Origin: Malacoraja senta
Taxonomy: Eukaryota
DNA: 64,000 nucleotides
Assembly (NCBI GenBank): GCA_038087875.1
Contig: CM075989.1
Span: 21,950,001 to 22,014,000 of the forward strand
Direction: 5' to 3'
The translations under genes were made by a program, and so were the position numbers. The notes beneath the pieces are model-generated. The model did not search any database and was not told the DNA's origin. It was given only the letters and a program-made list of their open reading frames with translations. Below are positions 3,310 to 57,304 of the stretch, in pieces. Position 1 is the first letter of the stretch. Each line of letters begins with the position of its first letter.

Positions 3310-3500
3310 GTACCAAGTACCTGCAGATGCTAGTGGACAGAGGTAAGGCCACTCTGGAGTAGTTCAACGGGTCAGGCAAGGATATGTGGCGTTTTGGGTC
3401 GGTACATCGGAAGAAGGGTCCCGACCTGAAACATCGCCTATCCATGTTCTCCAAGGATGCTGCCTGACCTGCTGAGTTACTCCAGCATTTTGTGTGTTTC
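3310..3500. mobile_element. Degenerate fold-back Penelope terminus (hammerhead-bearing)
   Basis: Inverted then direct copy of the PLE terminal repeat (GAAGAAGGGTCCCGACCTGAAACATC...GAGTTACTCCAGC). Confidence 0.7.
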
Positions 3501-3884
3501 CAAGATTGAATTACAGCCATCTTGGGTTCATCCCATGGTTGAGTTGAAAGTCATATGGTCATTAGATCATCAAATTGACCTGGTCCAACTTTGACATTAT
3601 GGGAATGTGGAACTGTTACCAGTGAGGTACATGAGGAAAGAGACATCCTAGATAAGTCTGGCACTAACAAAAGCAGCATCAGAGAAGTGCTGAGATGTGA
3701 TTACAATGTTCAAAAGTTAGACAGTGAAGCATTTTGAAGCTTTTCAGACATTCATTTGGCTCAGGATATCTCTGAAAATAATGTCAATGAGTTTTCAAAG
3801 TTGCAATTGACACAATACCCAAACCAAGTAAAAGAAAGTTCCATGTTGCTACTACCTTTTTGTGGAAAATCCACATTCCAGAAC

Positions 3885-8426: not shown

Positions 8427-8648
8427 TTTAAGAAAGAACAGCAGATGCTGGAAAAATCTAAGGTAGACAAAAATGCCGGAGAAACTCAGCGGGTGAGGCA
8501 GCATCTATGGAGCGAAGGAAATAGGCGACGTTTCAGGTCGAGACCCTTCTTCAGACTAAAGAAGGGTCTCAAACCGAAACGTCGACTATTCCTTCACTCC
8601 AGAGATGCTGCCTCACCCGCTGAGTTTCTCCAGCATTTTTGTCTGCCG
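8427..8648. mobile_element. Palindromic (fold-back) Penelope-terminus insertion with hammerhead motifs
   Basis: Inverted arms centred on CTTCAGACTAAAG. 16-bp TSD ACAGATAGC(G/A)CCCGTG at 8411-8426 and 8649-8664. Confidence 0.9.
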
Positions 8649-8697
8649 ACAGATAGCACCCGTGGTCAGGATCTCACCCAGTTCTATGGCGCGGTAA

Positions 8698-9310: not shown

Positions 9311-9663
9311 ACAACTAATCAAGGTGAACAACTAATCGCACTTCTCCAGCTTTCCCAATCCTCTCACTGTTTCTGTGCCAGTTTAGACCTGACAATACAC
9401 AACAGGCCCATTCACTTCTGTGGCTGCAAGGGAGAAGGGTGTGGTATATCGTAATTTAATTGCAATTTTATTGGATTAATTTTAATATACCTATAATTTT
9501 TTACAATGCTGTATGTCTTCTTTTTTTAATTTAAAGGATTTAAGAAGTTTTTATTTGATTGATTACTTTTTAATCATCCTTGCATGTGTGTTTGCTTATA
9601 TGAGAGACACCCACAGATCATTGATATCTTTGACAGCTGGTAAGCCTGAGACAAACAGTAACA

Positions 9664-10234
9664 CCGAAGATAGACACAAAATGCTGGAGTAACTTGGCAC
9701 AGTGCAACGGTCGATCCTTACAGCGCCAAAGACCCGGGTTCGATTCTGACCACGGGTGCTGTCTGTATGGAGTTTGTACGTTCTCCCCGTGACCTGCACG
9801 GGTTTTCTCCGAGATCTTTGGTTTCCTCCCACACTCCAAAGGTTTGTAGGTTAATTGGCTTGGTAAAAAAGTAAATTGTCCCTAGTGTGTGTGTGTTGGA
9901 TAGAGTTAATGTAAGGGGATCGCTGGTCGTCAAGGACTCGGGGGGCTGAATGGCCTGTTTCTGTGCTGTATCTCTAAACTAAACTGAACTAAACTCAGCT
10001 GGACAGGCAGCATCACTGGAGAGAAGGAATGGGTGATGTTTCGGGTCGAGACCCTTCTTCAGATTGAGCTGGAGAGCAGGAGGAATCACAGAGGGGGAGC
10101 AGCAAGAGAGGGTGTTGCAGAACTCTCGTCGGAGAGAGGAAGAGAACTTCTTCAAAGTAGGCATACCTTGAGGAGATTTTGCGTTGGAGCAGACGGAATG
10201 TGTAGGAAGGAACTTCAGATGCTGGTTCCTTCCT
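9664..10234 (-). mobile_element. Circularly permuted Penelope-derived insertion with hammerhead motif, interrupted by a SINE
   Basis: 15-bp TSD AGACAAACAGTAACA at 9649-9663 and 10235-10249. Minus-strand order is distal tail, putative ORF start, hammerhead, proximal tail. Confidence 0.8.
9696..9995 (+). mobile_element. HE1-like V-SINE inserted in a PLE terminus
   Basis: Head, V-domain and tail. Flanks GGAGTAACT and AACTCAGC rejoin the PLE repeat. Confidence 0.9.
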
Positions 10235-10380
10235 AGACAAACAGTAACAATTGGAGAGGCCCTGGACAGCAACTGGCCCTTGCTTAGCAAGAACTGGCTT
10301 CTCTCAACTCTTGATAGACACAAAATGCTGGAGTAACTCAGAGGGACAGAGAGGCATATGCTGCCTGTCCCGCTGAGTAA

Positions 10381-10604
10381 AGGGCCTGTCCCACTTGACG
10401 ATTTTTTCGGTGACTGCCGGCGTCATATCAGTGTCGCCAAAAGATTTTGAACATTTCAAAATCCAGCGGCAACAAAGAAAATGTTGTGGCACTTGAAAAA
10501 TCACCGCTCGTCATACGTCACCACGCCGCGTCATTCCGGTGACCTGATATGTCAGTCAATGATGCCGGCAGTTGCCGAAACAATCGCCAAGTGGGACAGG
10601 CCCT
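10381..10604. mobile_element. PIF/Harbinger-type MITE (second internal type)
   Basis: Same 16-bp TIR as 8698-8995, extended to an imperfect inverted repeat of about 46 bp. TAA TSD. Inserted in a PLE terminus (about 10313-10665). Confidence 0.9.
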
Positions 10605-10802
10605 TAACTTCAGCATTATGTGTCTATCTTCGATTTAAACCTGCATCTGCAGTTCCTTCCGACACATTCTCTCAACTCTTGTTCCAGATGCGAATGAGCT
10701 TTGTACGACAACTTGCTGGCACCAGTTTTGGATGTTTTACAGTCAGTACAAAGAGTCATAGTCATGGAGTCACATGGCCTACTCCCTCACCTATTGTCTA
10801 TT

Positions 10803-21935: not shown

Positions 21936-21978
21936 AGAAACATCCTATCACATCTAGAGAGCAGCAATACTTTGGTTA

Positions 21979-22138
21979 AAAGACGCAATTTGCTGGTGTA
22001 ACTCAGTGGGTCAGGCAGCATCTCTGGAAACGATAGGGAGAGGTGAAAAAATTCTTCAAGTTAGGCATACCTTGAGGAAATTTCGCAGTGGAGCTCTAAA
22101 ATGTAGACATAAGGAACTGTAGATGCTGGTTGAATAAA
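21979..22138 (-). mobile_element. Circularly permuted Penelope-derived insertion
   Basis: 13-bp TSD AATACTTTGGTTA at 21966-21978 and 22139-22151. Same permuted order as 9664-10234. Confidence 0.78.
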
Positions 22139-22159
22139 AATACTTTGGTTACTTTTCTT

Positions 22160-22440
22160 TGTTTAGCGATACATCGTGGAAACGGGCCCTTCGTTCCAGC
22201 AAGTCCATACCGACCATGGATCGCTGTTCACACTAGTTCTACAATATCAAACTTTCTCATCCACTCCCACCAGTGGCCTATTAACTCACAAACCCACACG
22301 TCTTTGGAATGTGGGAAGAAACCGGAGCACCCAGCGGAAACCCACGTGCAAACTCCACACAGACAGCACCCGAGGACAGGTTCGGACCCGGTCACTGATG
22401 CTGTGAGGCAGCAGCTCCACCTGCTGCGCCACTGTGCCGC
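22160..22440 (-). mobile_element. V-SINE, divergent subfamily
   Basis: Reverse complement of head, V-domain and tail. Confidence 0.85.
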
Positions 22441-24502: not shown

Positions 24503-25119
24503 TGGACATGTTGGTCAGTTGGGCCAAAGGGCCTGTTTCCACACTGTATCACTCTATGACACTATGACTGTGCAACCCTTAAACTCAGCTCCATGTTCTG
24601 GACCTTCTGGTCAAAGGAAACAATCTCTCAGTATCCATCCTGTCAATTCCTTTCAACACATTACATGTTTTAATGACATCACGCTATATTCTTTTATACT
24701 CTATCCAGTGTGCACTTAAAACACTACAAACTCAAGATCCATCATAAAGCTGACTGCTCATCCCAGGAAACAAACCAATAGATGAACTCTCCACTTCCTC
24801 CAAGTCTTGAATATCCTTCATGAGTATTTAGACACAATTGTAAACAGTCGAGGTCTCAACAGAACCTGAAAAACTAGCAACACTTAATAAGCTAGACATC
24901 AGAACGAAAATCACAATGTCTCCGCGCTAGACTCCAGGAACTGTAGATGCTGGTATATCAAAAAAGACACAAAGTGCTTGGGTAACTCAACGGGCCAGGC
25001 AGCATATCTGGAGAACATGATAGGCAATGTTTGTAGTCAGGACCTTTCTCCCGAAATGTCCCACCAAAACGCTGCCTGTTCATGTTCTCCAGAGATGCTG
25101 CCTGAAGTTACTCCAGTAT

Positions 25120-25500
25120 TGGCAGCCCTGCCAACAATCTGTCTGTTTTTTCGTTTTTCTTTTTATTTTTTGTGTGTTTTAAAAGTCTGTGTAAATGTTC
25201 TCGGGTTTGTGTTATGTGGGGGGAGGGGGAGGGGGAGGGGGAACCTTTTTTCCAGTTTCTTACCTTGCCGGAGATGCGATTGTTTTCCAGATCGTATCTC
25301 CGGTCACTCTGCGGCCTACCATTGATGGAGCTGGGGGCCTCCTCGGACTAACTTCAGCCCCACTGCAGGGCGTGGACTTAACATCGGACCTGATCCCTTG
25401 CCTGGGATCGCTCCAACTGCAGCCTGCGGACTTTACCATCGTGAGCTCGCAGTCTCGGGAGAGGCTAGTCGGGAGCTCCTACGACGCAGAGGCTTCCACC
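25120..25500 (+). mobile_element. GC-rich non-coding interspersed repeat (related to 56160-56525)
   Basis: AGCCTGCGGACTTTACCATCGTGAGCTCGCAGTCTC matches AGCCTGCGGACTCTAACATCGTGGAGCTCGCGGTCTC at about 56164. Confidence 0.6.
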
Positions 25501-26761: not shown

Positions 26762-27261
26762 AGAAACATAGAAATTAGGTGCAGGAGTAGGCCATTCGGC
26801 CCTTCGAGCCTGCACCGCCATTCAATATGATCATGGCTGATCATCCAACTCAGTATCCTGTACGTGCCTTCTCTCCATACCCTCTGATCCCTTTAGCCAC
26901 AAGGGCCACATCTAACTCCCTCTTAAATATAGCCAATGAACTGGCCTCGACTACCCTCTGTGGCAGAGAGTTCCAGAGATTCACCACTCTCTGTGTGAAA
27001 AAAGTTCTTCTCATCTCGGTTTTAAAGGATTTCCCCTTTATCCTTAAGCTGTGACCCCTTGTCCTGGACTTCCCCAACATCGGGAGCAATCTTCCTGCAT
27101 CTAGCCTGTCCAACACCTTAAGAATTTTGTAAGTTTCTATAAGATCCCCTCTCAATCTCCTAAATTCTAGAGAGTATAAACCAAGTCTATCCAGTCTTTC
27201 TTCATAAGACAGTCCTGACATCCCAGGAATCAGTCTGGTGAACCTTCTCTGCACACCCTCT
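26762..27261 (-). mobile_element. Young CR1 LINE 3' fragment
   Basis: Uninterrupted EGVQRRFTRLIPGMSGLSYEERLDRLGLYSLEFRRLRGDLIETYK...GYGEKARTGY and (TTTCTATG)n tail. Confidence 0.95.
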
Positions 27262-27602
27262 AAGTTAAAATTGTAGCAGTACAATAACCGTATAATTGTA
27301 TATGCCGTTGGTTTTATTTTTGTACATTTGCTTCTAATAAATAAATAAATAAAAAATAAATAAAAAATAAATGTTGCTGTAGGAGTAGAGATTTGAGAGT
27401 GTGGAGCGATCGTAATGTGAGTTTGTAGATCTGCTTCTGTGGCCAACACGCAAATAGTCGCCTGGGTTGGTCGCCATCTTGGGAAGCAGAGCTTTCTTCG
27501 TGACCTCACTGACGATCATTTCCGGGTGAGTTTGCACCAGTTTCCATGGGCGATACACACTGGCACATCTGTCTCCTTCCCAATATCAGTCAAGTTTGTA
27601 AT

Positions 27603-27810
27603 GGTAGACAAAATGCTGGAGTAACTCAGCGGGTCGGGCAGCATTTCTGGAGAAAAAGAATAGGCGACGTTCAGTCTGAAGAAGGGTTCCAACCAAGTCG
27701 AAAAGTCACCCATTCCTTCTCTCCAGAGATGCTGCCTGACATGGTGGGTCACTCTGGCTTTTTGTGTCTATCTTTGCTGTAAACCAGCATCTGCAGTTTC
27801 TTCCTGTACA
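27603..27810. mobile_element. Fold-back Penelope-terminus element
   Basis: Inverted arm, then TCAGTCTGAAGAAGGG..., then direct arm. Confidence 0.85.
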
Positions 27811-36066: not shown

Positions 36067-36212
36067 GCTTTCGTCTGACGAAGTCTGAAGAAAAGTCTCG
36101 ACCCGGAACGTCACCTATTCCTTTTCCCCAGAGATGCTGCCTGACCCGCTGAGTTAATCCAGCTTTTTGTGTCTATCTTTGGTTTAAACCAGCATCTGCA
36201 GTTCCTTCCTAC
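36067..36212 (+). mobile_element. Short hammerhead/PLE-terminus insertion
   Basis: GTCTGAAGAAAAGTCTCGACCCGGAACGTCACC...CAGCATCTGCAGTTCCTTCCTAC, flanked by ATGTGAAG. Confidence 0.85.
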
Positions 36213-37439: not shown

Positions 37440-38221
37440 ATACCCCACCACTCGCCACATCTTCCCATCTCCCCCCATGTCTGCCTTCCGCAAAGACCGC
37501 TCCCTCCGTAACTCCCTTGTCAATTCTTCCCTTCCCTCCCGTACCACCCCCTCCCCGGGTACTTTCCCTTGCAACCGCAAGAGATGCAACACTTGTCCCT
37601 TCACCTCCCCCTCGACTCCATTCAAGGACCTAAGCAGTCGTTCCAGGTGCGACAGAGGTTCACCTGCATTTCCTCCAACCTCATCTATTGCATCCGCTGC
37701 TCTAGATGCCAGCTGATCTACATCGGTGAGACCAAGCGGAGGCTTGGCGATCGTTTCGCCGAACACCTCCGGTCGGTCCGCAATAACCGACCTGACCTCC
37801 CGGTGACTCAGCACTTCAACTCCCCCTCCCATTCCGTATCTGACCTCTATGTCCTGGGTCTCCTCCATGGCCACAGCGAGCAACACCGGAAATTGGAGGA
37901 AATGCACCTCATATTCCGCTTGGGCAGTCTACATCCTGGGGGCTTGAACATTGAATTCTCCCAATTCTGCTAGCCCTTGCTGTCCCCTCCCCTTCATCAG
38001 CCCTCTGGTTGTCTCCTCCCCTCCCCTAGCCCTCGGGCTCCTCCTCCGCCTTTTTTCCTTTTTTCCTTTCTTCTCCCCACCCCCTATCAGTCTGAAGAAG
38101 GGTTTCGGCCCGAAAAGTTGCCTATTTCCTTCGCTCCATAGATGCTGCTGCACCCGCTGAGTTTCTCCAGCATTTTTGTGTACCTTCGATTTTTCCAGCA
38201 TCTGCAGTTCCTTCTTTAACA
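37440..38221 (+). mobile_element. Penelope-like element 3' part: GIY-YIG endonuclease region plus terminal repeat with hammerhead
   Basis: AFRKDRSLRNSLV...CNRKRCNTCP (frameshift) ...FTCISSNLIYCIRCSRCQLIYIGETKRRLGDRFAEH...E..LIFRLGSLHPGGLN. 10-bp TSD CATGATATAT (37430-37439, 38222-38231). Confidence 0.95.
38088..38122 (+). ncRNA. Hammerhead motif of the Penelope terminus (stem III variant GAAAAGUU)
   Basis: CUGAAGA at 38092, stem II GGGU(UUCG)GCCC, GAAA. A C>A change breaks the AACGUU palindrome. Confidence 0.6.
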
Positions 38222-38676
38222 CATGATATATTAATTAATTGTTAACTAAATAATCCTATATTTTCAACTTTGTTGCGTACTTAAATTGAACTTTCAGTTA
38301 TACTGGTAAATATATCATAATATTTATTTGATATAATAAGGAATGTGTTTTTGATTCTTCTGTTGCCTTTACTGTGACACTGCATTGGTTTCAGCTATGT
38401 GTTCTAACAATCAGCAAACATCACTTTGCCTGTACATGTGAGTCACATCAAGGCTACAGCGGTAAGCTTTGTTTACATTGTGCCTTGGTGCCTTAATTTA
38501 GACTCATTGCCATACACTGATCTGAAGGATTCATAGCAGATCATCTTTTTCATCTGCCGCATCTTCACAGTGTGAAATTTTTTTTTTTACAAATGTTGGG
38601 CAAATCCATGCATGCTGGACGCTGACTAAACTCATCAAATGATGTACATGTGTAGATAGGACATAGAACAGATAAG

Positions 38677-43563: not shown

Positions 43564-43853
43564 CTGATGCCTGATTTCCCACCAGGGAAAAATCTAATTA
43601 GGTCCACAAATTGAATGCAGATTTATGTAAATAGCCGTCAGTCATGATTTCCTGTGCTGTTCACTGCAAATGTACTGACAACTTTTCACACCTGTGTAAA
43701 ATAAGAACTAAAAGAAAGGCATGTTTTGGCCGTTAGGAATGGAACACTTAGGAAGGTACGTGAGAGGAATAGAATGGGCAGATGCACAGAGTCTCTTTCC
43801 CAGAGAAGCAGAGGGCACAGTTGTAAGGTGAAGGGGGAAAGATTTAACAGGAG

Positions 43854-43957
43854 TTAAATCTCTGAAGAAGGGTTTCGGCCCGAAACGTTGCCTATTTCCT
43901 TCGCTCCATAGATGCTGCTGCACCCGCTGAGTTTCTCCAGCATTTTTTGTGTACCTT
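43854..43957 (+). mobile_element. Short young hammerhead/PLE-terminus insertion in a CR1 fragment
   Basis: 15-bp TSD AAGATTTAACAGGAG (43839-43853, 43958-43972). Confidence 0.92.
43861..43892 (+). ncRNA. Minimal type I hammerhead ribozyme core
   Basis: CUGAAGA (43862-43868), A, GGGU(UUCG)GCCC, GAAA, palindromic AACGUU. Predicted cut after 43889. Confidence 0.65.
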
Positions 43958-44707: not shown

Positions 44708-44900
44708 GGACACAAGGAACTGCAGATGCTGTTTTACAAACAAGGCACAAGGTGCTGGAGTAACTCAGCCGGTCAGGCAGCACCTCTGGAGAAACCTCCG
44801 GAGTCTGATAAAGGGTCCTGACCCGAAATATCACCCAACCACGTCCTACAGAGATGTTGTCTGACCCATTGAGTTTCTCTGACACTTAGTGTCGTTTTTT
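44708..44900. mobile_element. Degenerate fold-back Penelope-terminus element
   Basis: Inverted arm, then GTCTGATAAAGGGTCCTGACCCGAAA arm. Approximate TTGT(C/T)GATATTGT duplication. Confidence 0.75.
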
Positions 44901-45368
44901 GCTTGTTGATATTGTAGGAGTCATGAGCTCATTAATTCATGTCGTAGGAGCAGAATGAGGCCATTCTGCCCATCAAGTCTACTCTGCCATTCAATCATGA
45001 CTAATCTATCTTTCCCTCTCAACCCCATTCTCGTGCCTTCTCCTCGTAACCCCTGACAACCGTACTAATCAAGAATCTGCCAATCTCCGCCTCACAAATA
45101 TCCATTGAATTGGCCTCCAGAGCCTTCTGTGACAATGAATTCCACAGATTCATCACCCTCTGATTCCTTCAATCTATCTGTCTTACACTGCCTTTTACAG
45201 TAAACATGTACAAATATTTTCATTCTGAAGGGTGAAGACCATGGGATGGGCAACTATCTCAAATGTGCTGGATCATACTGTATTAGTTGTTACATCCCCA
45301 TCTGATAATCAGTTACATTGTCATCAATAAAATGCCTGGCAATCTGATCACGTGACGAGAACCTGCTA

Positions 45369-47029: not shown

Positions 47030-47602
47030 ACATTTATGTTACTGTGGTGAAGAAGGCTTATGGTATACTTGGCATCATAGTTAGGGGCTGTGAGTATAAT
47101 AGTCTGAAAATCACTTGATAGTGATTCAGAAAATCACTATAACTTGTGAACTTGTGAAAATCATGTGCAGCTTTGAGGGACTTTGGTTCAGCCACATTTG
47201 GTGTATTGCACGATCTTTACAGGAAGGATGTGGAGGCTTGCGAGAGAATACAGAAGAGTTTTTTTTGGTTTTTTTTTACAATAGGTGCAGGATTAGGCCA
47301 TTCGGCCCTTCGAGCCAGCAGATCTTTGCCAGATTAGGGAGCATTAGCTTCAGGAAAATGTTGGACAGACTTGTATTGTTTCCTCAGTAACGCTAGGGGT
47401 CGTGAGGACGGTTGGTAGACGTATATAAAATGATGATCGACATATATAGGGTAGACAGTCAGAACCTTTTTTCCTAGGGCGGAAATGTCAAAGACTAGAG
47501 GGCATAGCTTTAAGGTGTGAGGGACAAAGTTTAAAGGAGATGTGTGGGGCAGGTTATTTCACACAAAGACTGGTGGCTGCACCAGGGGTGGTGGTGGAGG
47601 CA
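47030..47602 (+). mobile_element. Older CR1 fragment (resumes 48377-48430)
   Basis: Degenerate VVKKAYGILG...KTRGHSFKV...GRLFHTK. Split by a younger CR1. Confidence 0.8.
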
Positions 47603-48376
47603 CGTATTATCTGAATGGTGGCCGATTAGGAAAAGGGGAGATGCAACGAGACCTGGGTGTCGTGGTACACCAGTCATTGAAAGTAGGCATGCAGGTGCAG
47701 CAGGCAGTGAAGAAGGCGAATGGTATGTTAGCATTCATAGCAAAAGGATTTGAGTATAGGAGCAGGGAGGTTCTACTGCAGTTGTACAGGGTCTTGGTGA
47801 GACCACACCTGGAGTATTGCGTACAGTTTTGGTCTCCAAATCTGAGGAAGGACATTATAGCCATAGAGGGAGTGCAGAGAAGGTTCACCAGACTGATTCC
47901 TGGGATGTCAGGACTTTCATATGAAGAAAGACTGGATAGACTCGATTTGTACTCGCTAGAATTTACAAGATTGAGGGGGGATCTTATAGAAACTTACAAA
48001 ATTCTTAAGGGGTTGGACAAGCTAGATGCAGGAAGATTGTTCCTGATGTTGGGGAAGTCCAGAACAAGGGGTCACAGTTTAAGGATAAGGGGGAAATCTT
48101 TTAGGACCGAGATGAGGAAAACATTTTTCACACAGAGAGTGGTGAATCTCTGGAATTCTCTGCCACAGAGGGTAGTTGAGGCCAGTTCATTGGCTATATT
48201 TAAGAGGGAGTTAGATGTGGCCCTTGTGGCTAAAGGGATCAGGGGGTATGGAGAGAAAGCAGGTACAGGATACTGAGTTGGATGATCAGCCATGATCATA
48301 TTGAATGGCGGTGCAGGCTCGAAGGGCCGAATGGCCTACTCCTGCACCTATTTTCTATGTTTCTATGTTTCTATGT
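47603..48376 (+). mobile_element. Young CR1 LINE, ORF2 C-terminal about 220 aa intact, 5' truncated
   Basis: YYLNG...QRDLGVVVHQSLKVGMQVQQAVKKANGML...LVRPHLEYCVQFWSP...WNSLPQRVVEA...GTGY*, (TTTCTATG)n tail. Confidence 0.97.
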
Positions 48377-50236: not shown

Positions 50237-50790
50237 AATATAGCAAGAAATAATGGTGGTACTCTAATGGATCATAGTCACATCCAATTAAACTGGAGAA
50301 ATTAAAGATTAACTTTCCACCCAGTGAATGCAGCAAATAATATTTGCTAATAAACAACATACCTCACTAACTACAAACATCCAACATTAACATTTGTGAC
50401 TTGGGTTTAATTAAATGAAGGTAGTATTGATTCCCCCCCCCCCCCCCCAAAGTAATAGGTTTCACATAAGACGATTAATATTATTCACACCCACATGTCT
50501 GCTGAATGATCTTGACCCTTGTAACCTTGGCCTTTTCAGAGGCTTACACTGCGCCTGCTTGCAGCCTGTCCCCGGCATGTTATTGACATAAACAGAATTT
50601 AATCTGTCTCTAGCAAGCACGAGCCAACCAGCACATTGGGCGATGACTGTGCACCACACAACAAGCTGCACAGCAGTGCCTAGTGGTGGTGGCACTATTT
50701 CTGCAGTCAGAATTAAAACAATAAAGTATCCACACGAATCCCTCCGTGTCCCAACTCGTAACTGAATTGGACTTAAATTAAATAAAAGGA

Positions 50791-51246
50791 CACAGAATGC
50801 TGGAGTAACTCAGCGGGTCAAGAGGCATCTCTGGAGAACATGGATAGGTGACGTTTCACACAGTGCTGGAGTAACTCAGCGGGTCAGGCAGCATCTCTGG
50901 AGAACATGGATAAATAACGTTTCACAGAGTGCTGGAGTAACTCAGCGGGTCAGGCAGCATCTCTGGAGAACATGGATAGGTGACGTTTCACAGAGTGCTG
51001 GAGTAACTCAGCGGGTCAGGCAGCATCTGTGGAGCGAAGGAAATGGGCAACCTTTCGGGCCGAAACCCTGAAGGAAATAGGCAACGTTTCGGGCCGAAAC
51101 CCGGAAGGGTTTCGGGCCGAAACGTTGCCTATTTCCTTCGCTCCATAGATGCTGCCGGAACATGGATAGGTGACGTTTCACAGAGTGCTGGAGTAACTCA
51201 GCGGGTCAGGCAGCATCTCTCGAGAATATGCATCGGTGACGTTTCG
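50791..51246 (-). repeat. 66-nt tandem array derived from the Penelope terminus, with an internal young fold-back insertion
   Basis: Units start at 50791, 50857, 50923, 50989 and 51179 (CACAGAGTGCTGGAGTAACTCAGCGGGTCAGGCAGCATCTCTGGAGAACATGGATAGGTGACGTTT). Confidence 0.92.
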
Positions 51247-56525: not shown

Positions 56526-57197
56526 TACAAAAATATGATATCCAATTCGTTTGTTAGGAAGAGCACATTTGTACATCCTTTGGGTCATGTTATTGTGTAC
56601 ATTGGTATCAGATAGCATGAGTCAACACCAGCTTGTAAAGTCCGTGAGATTGCCTTATCACAGTGACTGACACCATTGATCCACAGCGGTTTCGATGGCA
56701 GATCTGAATTTGTAACAATACTGAAAGGTTACTTTTCTTACTTGTAGGACATTGTTCTCCTTTACCGAAGGCATCAGTCAACCTCGTTACCCCCAAGCTC
56801 AGATGTTTACAAATGTGAGTTATGAGAGCTTTGTTGGATATTGTTTTAAGATGCCTGCTTCATGGACTTGTCACTAACTAATTCAATACTTATTATCCAA
56901 GACTTAAATTATATTATGTAAACAGGGATATACTTTTGAATTGCAAAAGATTGTCCAACAAGCACCTCATATTTAATATATCTCCAATCTGAAGAAGGAT
57001 CTCGACCCGAAACATCACCCATTCCTTCTCTCTGGAGATGCTGGTTGCCCCGGATGCAAAGACTGAGACAAAAATAGTTGCCTAATCCCTGGCTGAGTAA
57101 ATGTTTTCAGGGGAGTGACCATTTTAAATTCTTAATATTAACAAAAAAGGCAGCTGGCATAATCAATTATAGAATGATAATCAGCAATATGAATTCT

Positions 57198-57304
57198 GAA
57201 TCTGAAATCTGAAGGAAGGGACTCGACCCGAAACGTCACCCATTCCTTCTCTCCGCAGATGCTGGTTGTCCCGCTGAGTTACTCCTGGTTTTTGTGACTA
57301 TCTT
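57198..57304 (+). mobile_element. Short hammerhead/PLE-terminus insertion
   Basis: 13-bp TSD CAATATGAATTCT (57185-57197, 57305-57317). Stuttered start GAATCTGAAATCTGAAG. Confidence 0.9.

Follow-up and report, generated by a model that had tools for sequence, protein, structure and literature searches.

Penelope-like elements (PLEs) are described as carrying a GIY-YIG endonuclease, a hammerhead motif in the terminal repeat, a 30-nt tail and a target duplication, and their 5'-truncated, tandem and inverted copies as well as tails at the 5' end have been reported (PMC8557442, PMC2377424). A family of repeats in the 64-kb stretch of repeat-rich animal DNA analysed here, referred to as the window, is alike in these respects, but the insertion at 21979-22138 differs from the described PLEs in that its 5' piece, composed of the tail, the leader and 31 nt of the open reading frame (ORF), is joined near-exactly to a terminal piece of 59 nt. 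For PAc (Poseidon of Anolis carolinensis), reverse transcriptase (RT) is reported to start internally at two sites flanking the tail, both target strands to be cut at A+T-rich sites, and hammerhead mutants to insert normally, with no RNA-seq reads beginning or ending at the cut among the data presented (PMC11167929). PAc belongs to the Poseidon clade, whereas the family in the window has a linker of the Neptune/Nematis type; the PAc start is reported to lack homology to the target, while 1-5 nt of possible pairing are present in each of the two permuted copies described below; and template jumps do not figure in the available part of the PAc description (PMC11167929).

Minimal type I PLE hammerheads (PMC4209133) resemble the motif in the window in the core CUGANGA..GAAA..NUH, the lack of a real helix III, the palindromic centre and the huge copy number. 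The circular-template model outlined in that source leads to more-than-unit copies with a rebuilt hammerhead, whereas 21979-22138 is without the core and most copies start upstream of an uncut core. Non-LTR retrozymes are likewise short and non-autonomous, originate from the terminal repeats of PLEs and have long target duplications (PMC7229834; preprint 10.64898/2026.07.22.740005). They are described, however, as tandem units with a whole hammerhead in each and a circular RNA (PMC7229834), and the assignment of 21979-22138 to this class was rejected on the ground that it is a single monomer with no core. R2, the SIDEs and in vivo template jumps (PMC3414825) are similar in that short derivatives combine a 5' and a 3' part and that jumps at the 5' end leave genomic traces; in R2 a ribozyme cut sets the precise 5' end (PMC3414825), whereas the common 5' end of the family in the window lies about 31 nt upstream of the predicted cut.

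The sequence at 21979-22138 is a real, single insertion of 160 bases with its halves swapped, in a skate- or ray-like genome, and is a piece of a Neptune-type PLE of cartilaginous fish. An exact 13-mer, AATACTTTGGTTA, brackets the insertion as left (21966-21978) and right (22139-22151) copies of the target site duplication and occurs just twice in the whole window; when 20000 pairs of sites were drawn at random at a distance of 160 nt, only 15 gave a repeat of at least 13 within 5 nt on either side. Read along the minus strand, a T-rich linker (22132-22138) is followed by the 30-nt Penelope tail at the 5' end of the insertion (22131-22102; tail as defined in PMC8557442 and PMC11167929), the leader between the tail and the ATG (22069-22101), the first 31 nt from the ATG at 22068 (22038-22068; MPNLKNFFTS, in relatives MP-LKKFSSSLRR), and then, from CCTATC at 22037 down to 21979, the post-hammerhead terminal repeat of the ACCTATCCATG subfamily, which runs from about +2 after the predicted cut to its end before the tail. 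In relatives the leader is in frame with the ATG segment.

The natural order of the PLE in the window is proximal repeat, tail and ATG segment, with the proximal-to-tail join present in seven window copies, and a Leucoraja erinacea protein (P0020) reads this order through to SPQGMP..KKFSSSLRR. When the end and the start of the insertion are joined, the linker completes this natural join: the sequence becomes GTC-T6-ATTC-AACC and matches the natural join of the subfamily within 1-2 bases. The hammerhead core is missing, since none of the seven motifs detected in the window by a regular expression lies inside the insertion, and the fold of the insertion gave a z score of -0.9. The duplication of 13 bp, the minus-strand order of distal tail, ATG segment and proximal repeat ending at the start point, and the absence of the catalytic core, all claimed in the preliminary description, are thus borne out. 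TGGTTA, the plus-strand 3' end of the left target copy, may have been the primer of cDNA synthesis, TGGTT of this copy being able to pair with AACCA at the tail start, and the post-hammerhead repeat (21979-22037) would be the part copied first.

Two separate small insertions, or an artefact of assembly, could in principle mimic such a permuted element, the window being dense in pieces of this kind (48 nhmmer matches in 64 kb) and the locus being known from the assembly alone. This explanation is highly improbable, however, for one exact 13-bp duplication surrounds both pieces, the end and the start abut, and four genomes have contigs with the same architecture, which is also that of 9664-10234.

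The parent family is represented in the window by a frameshifted 3' end on the plus strand at 37444-38222, including the linker, GIY-YIG, 3' UTR, a hammerhead at 38092-38119, the repeat and the tail. Within this region, 37512-37973 matches Pfam PF01541 (GIY-YIG endonuclease) at 22.8 bits against a cut-off of 22.6, and the best relatives of the endonuclease fragment (37444-37973) are from skates, rays and sharks, with 66% to a protein of Leucoraja erinacea. On its 3' side the fragment continues into a 3' UTR rich in pyrimidine, which precedes a minimal hammerhead motif, a proximal repeat of about 65 nt and the 30-nt tail. The CX2-5CxxC linker between RT and the endonuclease marks Neptune and Nematis PLEs (PMC8557442); in the window it reads CNRKRCNTC, and like motifs are present in three of four ray and shark proteins. 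No RT domain was found in the 64-kb window, the assignment to the Neptune type being based on the linker motif, and relatives carry YIDD/YVDN motifs. The tail, of 30-40 nt, is at the 3' end in natural copies and at the 5' end in 22102-22131. A profile of the terminal repeat detected 48 pieces in 64 kb (nhmmer).

The hammerhead motif of the family fits the minimal core with a palindromic ACGU helix III, and the core pattern predicts the cut at GUC^ACC (positions relative to this cut are hereafter given with a sign). Helix II is visible by eye, while helix I is just 2-3 bp as read from the sequence, as against the 4-5 bp expected of a minimal type I hammerhead. The stability of five hammerhead-region folds was not above that of shuffles, and comparison with Rfam gave no match at the gathering score. 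Pattern scans for further loci found none in metagenome and genome contigs, and in viral contigs gave only two matches, both attributed to chance and both in one unrelated coding sequence. The 54-aa ORF piece gave no match in a word-indexed protein search and two proteins in a HMMER search; of these, P0020 was informative and P0021, being repetitive, was disregarded. P0020 (skate) is a TRIM-like gene model in which the proximal repeat, the tail and the ORF start lie in one frame, and the predicted ORF of P0005 (zebra shark) finishes in a translated hammerhead-like stretch.

Another permuted insertion is located on the minus strand at 9664-10234, between a 15-bp target duplication (9649-9663 and 10235-10249), and is composed of the tail, the ORF to about +99 from the ATG, the whole hammerhead and the proximal repeat, the last split by a nested SINE-like repeat. 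Its junction lies at the 5' edge of the hammerhead and its core is whole. The target duplication, the subfamily and the junction all differ from those of 21979-22138, in agreement with the independence of the two insertions proposed earlier. Seven extra bases at its 5' end (10228-10234) repeat sequence of its own tail in inverted orientation (hairpin, z -6.6); such a fold-back copy is what a cDNA with a free end at the start of the tail would be expected to leave. An 8-mer, TGAAGAAG, is common to the ORF start and the hammerhead start of this insertion (10054-10061 and 10147-10154), and one contig joint (10060-10147), in one of the four genomes analysed below, seems to use it.

The starts of copies were counted in the window for 45 of the 48 nhmmer pieces, namely those including the region around or just after the cut, with three tail-only or far-downstream pieces left out. 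A total of 22 of the 45 pieces start at -32 to -29. The profile itself begins at -33, and for this reason the natural 3' UTR was looked for upstream of these starts: four of the 22 run on into it and 18 do not. The starts of the other 23 pieces are spread between -26 and +38; four, at -9 to -8, belong to one tandem cluster. Near the cut only 59001 (+3) and 21979-22138 (+2 or +14) start, and this number, 1-2 of the 23 off-peak pieces against 2.1 expected for a 6-nt window under a uniform spread, is at the level of chance.

For a wider sample, contigs of four runs from four organisms (89,302-109,102 per run) were aligned to 249 bases of the first permuted insertion (9992-10240), which hold the tail, the ORF start, the core, the cut site (10035/10034) and 43 nt beyond it in one stretch. 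Among the best 24 of 1519 rows of loose ends, the best six places were identical in the four runs: 10001, 10004, 10061, 10062, 10063 and 10067. The ends at 10001 and 10004 are the natural continuation and that at 10067 is the natural 3' UTR. At 10063, the ends were supported by 1934, 2754, 2795 and 2812 contigs in the four runs, and the flanks were unrelated to each other and A+T-rich (agreement 0.32-0.34); as about 90% of the depth disagrees with the reference at 10064, the real position of the ends is probably -30 or -31. The best-supported starts are thus 27-33 nt upstream of the cut with the core intact, and none of the best 24 rows lies near 10034. The weakest of these rows had 241, 355, 369 and 359 contigs, so that any place near the cut had fewer than 241-369 contigs, if the rows listed are the best ones.

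All of the best 15 of 492 tail-first joints link 10195-10201 (the tail end) to 10059-10067 (the hammerhead 5' edge), although the top joints may be between neighbouring copies, and some events are uncounted. Among the best 12 of 699 joint rows, two connect the hammerhead start with a piece of the ORF (10060-10147 and 10063-10116), and seven connect it with 10027-10030 (+5 to +8); these seven could be a minor near-cut class. At least five contigs in the four genomes cross the ORF-to-hammerhead junction. The histogram of junction positions proposed in the preliminary description was thereby obtained in part, with its peak 27-33 nt upstream of the cut and nothing near the cut in the best 24 of 1519 loose ends and the best 15 of 492 joints. 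The reference belongs to the ACCCATTCC subfamily, and that of 21979-22138 differs from it at five positions within the 12 nt that follow the cut, so that copies of the latter subfamily would be clipped near +13. The summed depth drops about 6- to 9-fold from ATG+20 to ATG+45 in all four runs, near the ORF-side break of 21979-22138, which may reflect a common end point or only the divergence of subfamilies. At reference position 10141, about 98% of the depth differs. A cap would be marked by a G added to the common 5' end, as in work on LINEs; such a G was present in four of the nine rows listed from 10063 against three of the 11 copies in the window whose first bases are AGT or AAT, which is only a hint. 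An R2-like 5' end made by the ribozyme was rejected on these counts, with the best-supported ends at 10061-10067 as against the cut at 10035/10034, and with 18 of 45 window pieces starting at -32 to -29 and lacking the natural 3' UTR upstream as against 1-2 near the cut.

The position of the junction in 21979-22138 was estimated by a two-parent pair-HMM with one jump, from the ORF-side parent to each of five hammerhead-side parents under three settings. In all 15 runs, +2 ranked first with a posterior of 0.20-0.49, and the interval from -2 to +3 received 0.30-0.64, the remainder being mostly at +4 to +16; the exact +1 was absent from the top eight positions in every run. The blastn alignment of the insertion passes through TCACC on the 5' side of the cut, and its nhmmer match begins at +14. 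The best junction is accordingly 22038/22037 (+2), within an ambiguous zone on the minus strand (22030-22046) with alternatives from -2 to +16, and this placement, as a best guess, is weakly fixed. The earlier claim that homology sets in not more than about 1 nt from the cut holds insofar as +2 is the likeliest position, but not in its precision, with only 0.30-0.64 in -2 to +3 and +1 outside the top eight. Relative to the common sequence, the ORF side of the junction has four changes in eight bases; two of these bring it closer to TCACCT, the sequence lying across the cut. In the best single alignment there is little or no exact microhomology at +2, and both sides are rich in pyrimidine with the near-matches TCACCT/TCCTCT. 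A simple deletion at the TCACCT microhomology, raised earlier as a caveat, is unlikely to have made the junction, as a start at -2 received only 0.02-0.05. A join at the 8-mer TGAAGAAG followed by loss of helix II was also rejected, starts at or below -20 receiving at most 0.02 (one parent, G at +1).

These values bear on a different origin of the insertion, namely from a solo Penelope copy of unit length whose middle part went missing, whether through a long jump on a tandem transcript or through DNA deletion at a later time. In such a copy the tail, ORF, 3' UTR, hammerhead and proximal repeat stand in normal order without a terminal repeat, and the permutation would be a matter of viewpoint. 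Solo copies with target duplications, and ORFs with a 34-bp repeat at both ends, are described (PMC2377424), the tail is reported at either end (PMC8557442), and the pyrimidine-rich sides with their near-matches would suit a deletion. Random deletion, however, should scatter the downstream breakpoint, whereas the joints cluster at the hammerhead edge (best 15 of 492), both permuted cases in the window keep less than 100 nt of the ORF, and the two deletion routes received the low posteriors given above. We consider this origin improbable; its long-jump version is indistinguishable from a jump on the same RNA by the copy at 21979-22138 alone.

The preliminary description had proposed that self-cleavage made the RNA's 5' end, which was then ligated or jumped to a 3' end. 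In one form, the hammerhead would have cut the template at GUC^, and RT would have run off the 5'-OH end, losing roughly a base, before jumping to an RNA end further downstream; in another, RT would have copied a circle joining that 5' end to an unrelated, non-ribozyme 3' end. Either way, 21979-22138 would be one of a rare class of copies from cut templates. The modal junction at +2 with little or no microhomology, the absence of the core, the second window copy at +3 (59001) and the seven of 12 joint rows at +5 to +8 (best 12 of 699) are in line with such a cut. The motif of the family agrees with the minimal hammerhead core and has a palindromic ACGU helix III (PMC4209133), and the anole hammerhead is reported to cut in vitro with protein present (PMC11167929). 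In contrast, the four genomes show no peak at the cut among the best 24 of 1519 rows and a main peak 27-33 nt upstream, the near-cut count in the window equals chance, and the exact +1 is outside the top eight. A canonical circle formed by cutting and religation would rebuild the core, yet the core is missing. Helix I is only 2-3 bp and the five folds are not above shuffles; minimal hammerheads are said to cut poorly and only as dimers (PMC4209133), and eight of nine Xenopus dimers did not cut in the experiments reported (bioRxiv 10.64898/2026.07.22.740005). Taken together, the linear and circular forms are unlikely. The permuted structure, the hammerhead of the family and a jump or join in copying stand from the earlier proposal, but since starts and joints pile up 27-33 nt upstream with the core intact and the near-cut count is at chance, its self-cleavage part fails most of its own test. 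The reading of 21979-22138 as a fossil of ribozyme activity is possible but not favoured, and coincidence with the cut site is more likely.

We lean, with modest confidence, towards the formation of 21979-22138 in one target-primed event of a Neptune-type PLE, with a template jump on one uncut RNA. The endonuclease, to judge from the family, would have nicked A+T-rich DNA with the 13-nt stagger observed in the duplication. Reverse transcription would have begun at an internal point of the RNA, immediately ahead of the tail, as the insert end and the in vitro precedent of the anole element suggest, and proceeded towards the RNA 5' end. In most events the enzyme would pass the uncut hammerhead and stop about 31 nt upstream of the cut, where the ends are observed; this usual end, the A of TCAGTC, is perhaps the transcription start, and runs up to it would yield the very common 130-nt hammerhead-headed copies. 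In the case of 21979-22138, the enzyme would have left the template about 32 nt earlier, at the hammerhead 3' edge (position uncertain), possibly upon stalling, re-engaged at about ATG+31 and copied back through the leader and the tail to its own start, where the abutment of end and start is observed. Stopping at its own starting point would make the permutation near-exact. For the other permuted copies, re-engagement would have taken place at the tail end or further into the ORF, again followed by copying back to the own start. The nearness of the junction to GUC^ in 21979-22138 would then be due to chance or to a stall at the ribozyme fold, without any cut; since the junction would fall at the same position whether RT stalled at the fold or the RNA had been cut, evidence from RNA would be required to interpret even a peak at that position.

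According to the ends in the best-supported rows, the usual template is uncut and begins just upstream of the ribozyme, which agrees with biochemical work on the anole element, and a jump to a downstream part of the RNA would be the source of the permuted copies. To the combined view that the permuted mini-copies record a same-RNA jump to the enzyme's own start and that the common 5' end at -31 is the transcription start, we give about an even chance. The sequence TCAGTC, which marks the common 5' end at the 5' edge of helix I after a pyrimidine tract, is both initiator-like and splice-acceptor-like. It fits the initiator consensus TCAKTY, a fly consensus (PMC6483594), and in Drosophila virilis an intron is reported to end at the 5' edge of helix I (PMC4209133).

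The PLE family, the minimal hammerhead, tails at either end, solo copies and the idea of a circular template are already in print (PMC4209133, PMC8557442, PMC2377424). Near-exact permuted PLE mini-copies with an ORF piece, or junctions at the cut, were not found in the literature searched, from which subscription papers and supplements were largely absent. The role of PLE hammerheads is described as unclear (PMC8557442), and permuted copies bear on the question of how tails reach the 5' end of PLE insertions. If the class of cut templates were real, 21979-22138, the copy at +3 and the joints at +5 to +8 would be genomic evidence of germ-line cutting by minimal ribozymes. With one diverged junction, 21979-22138 cannot show cleavage, and the copy alone is ordinary; it is the population of ends that makes the hammerhead question testable, and the dated copies, which cartilaginous fish contain in enormous numbers (89,000-109,000 contigs per run on 249 bases), amount to a natural experiment.

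The window contains a number of other arrangements of the terminal repeat. Five head-to-head inverted pairs, near 3405, 8555, 25053, 27672 and 44800, are joined at or near the hammerhead start (3311-3529, 8427-8652, 24929-25121, 27605-27804 and 44709-44902). Partial tandem copies are present at 50783-51069. At 50783-51246, tandem units of 66 nt start from GAAAC (base of helix II, -8) and are accompanied by inverted and core-only pieces of another subfamily; none of these units has a complete core. Stuttered or inverted extra bases were observed at the 5' junctions of hammerhead-headed copies (36070-36090, 57190-57210 and 43845-43861), in the form of repeated TCTGA starts and of an inverted piece of the target site.

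Repeats of other kinds are also present. An element of about 230 bp with terminal inverted repeats (10380-10606), which we take to be a PIF/Harbinger-type MITE, is inserted at TAA within a Penelope piece, and the regions 26850-27515 and 47521-48276 are presumably CR1/L2-like RT fragments. A repeat of about 300 bp with an (AAACT)n tail, which we assume to be SINE-like, is very abundant in the window (for instance 891-1208, 9695-9991 and 22157-22440); one copy is nested in the first permuted insertion, and another ends beside the right target copy of 21979-22138.
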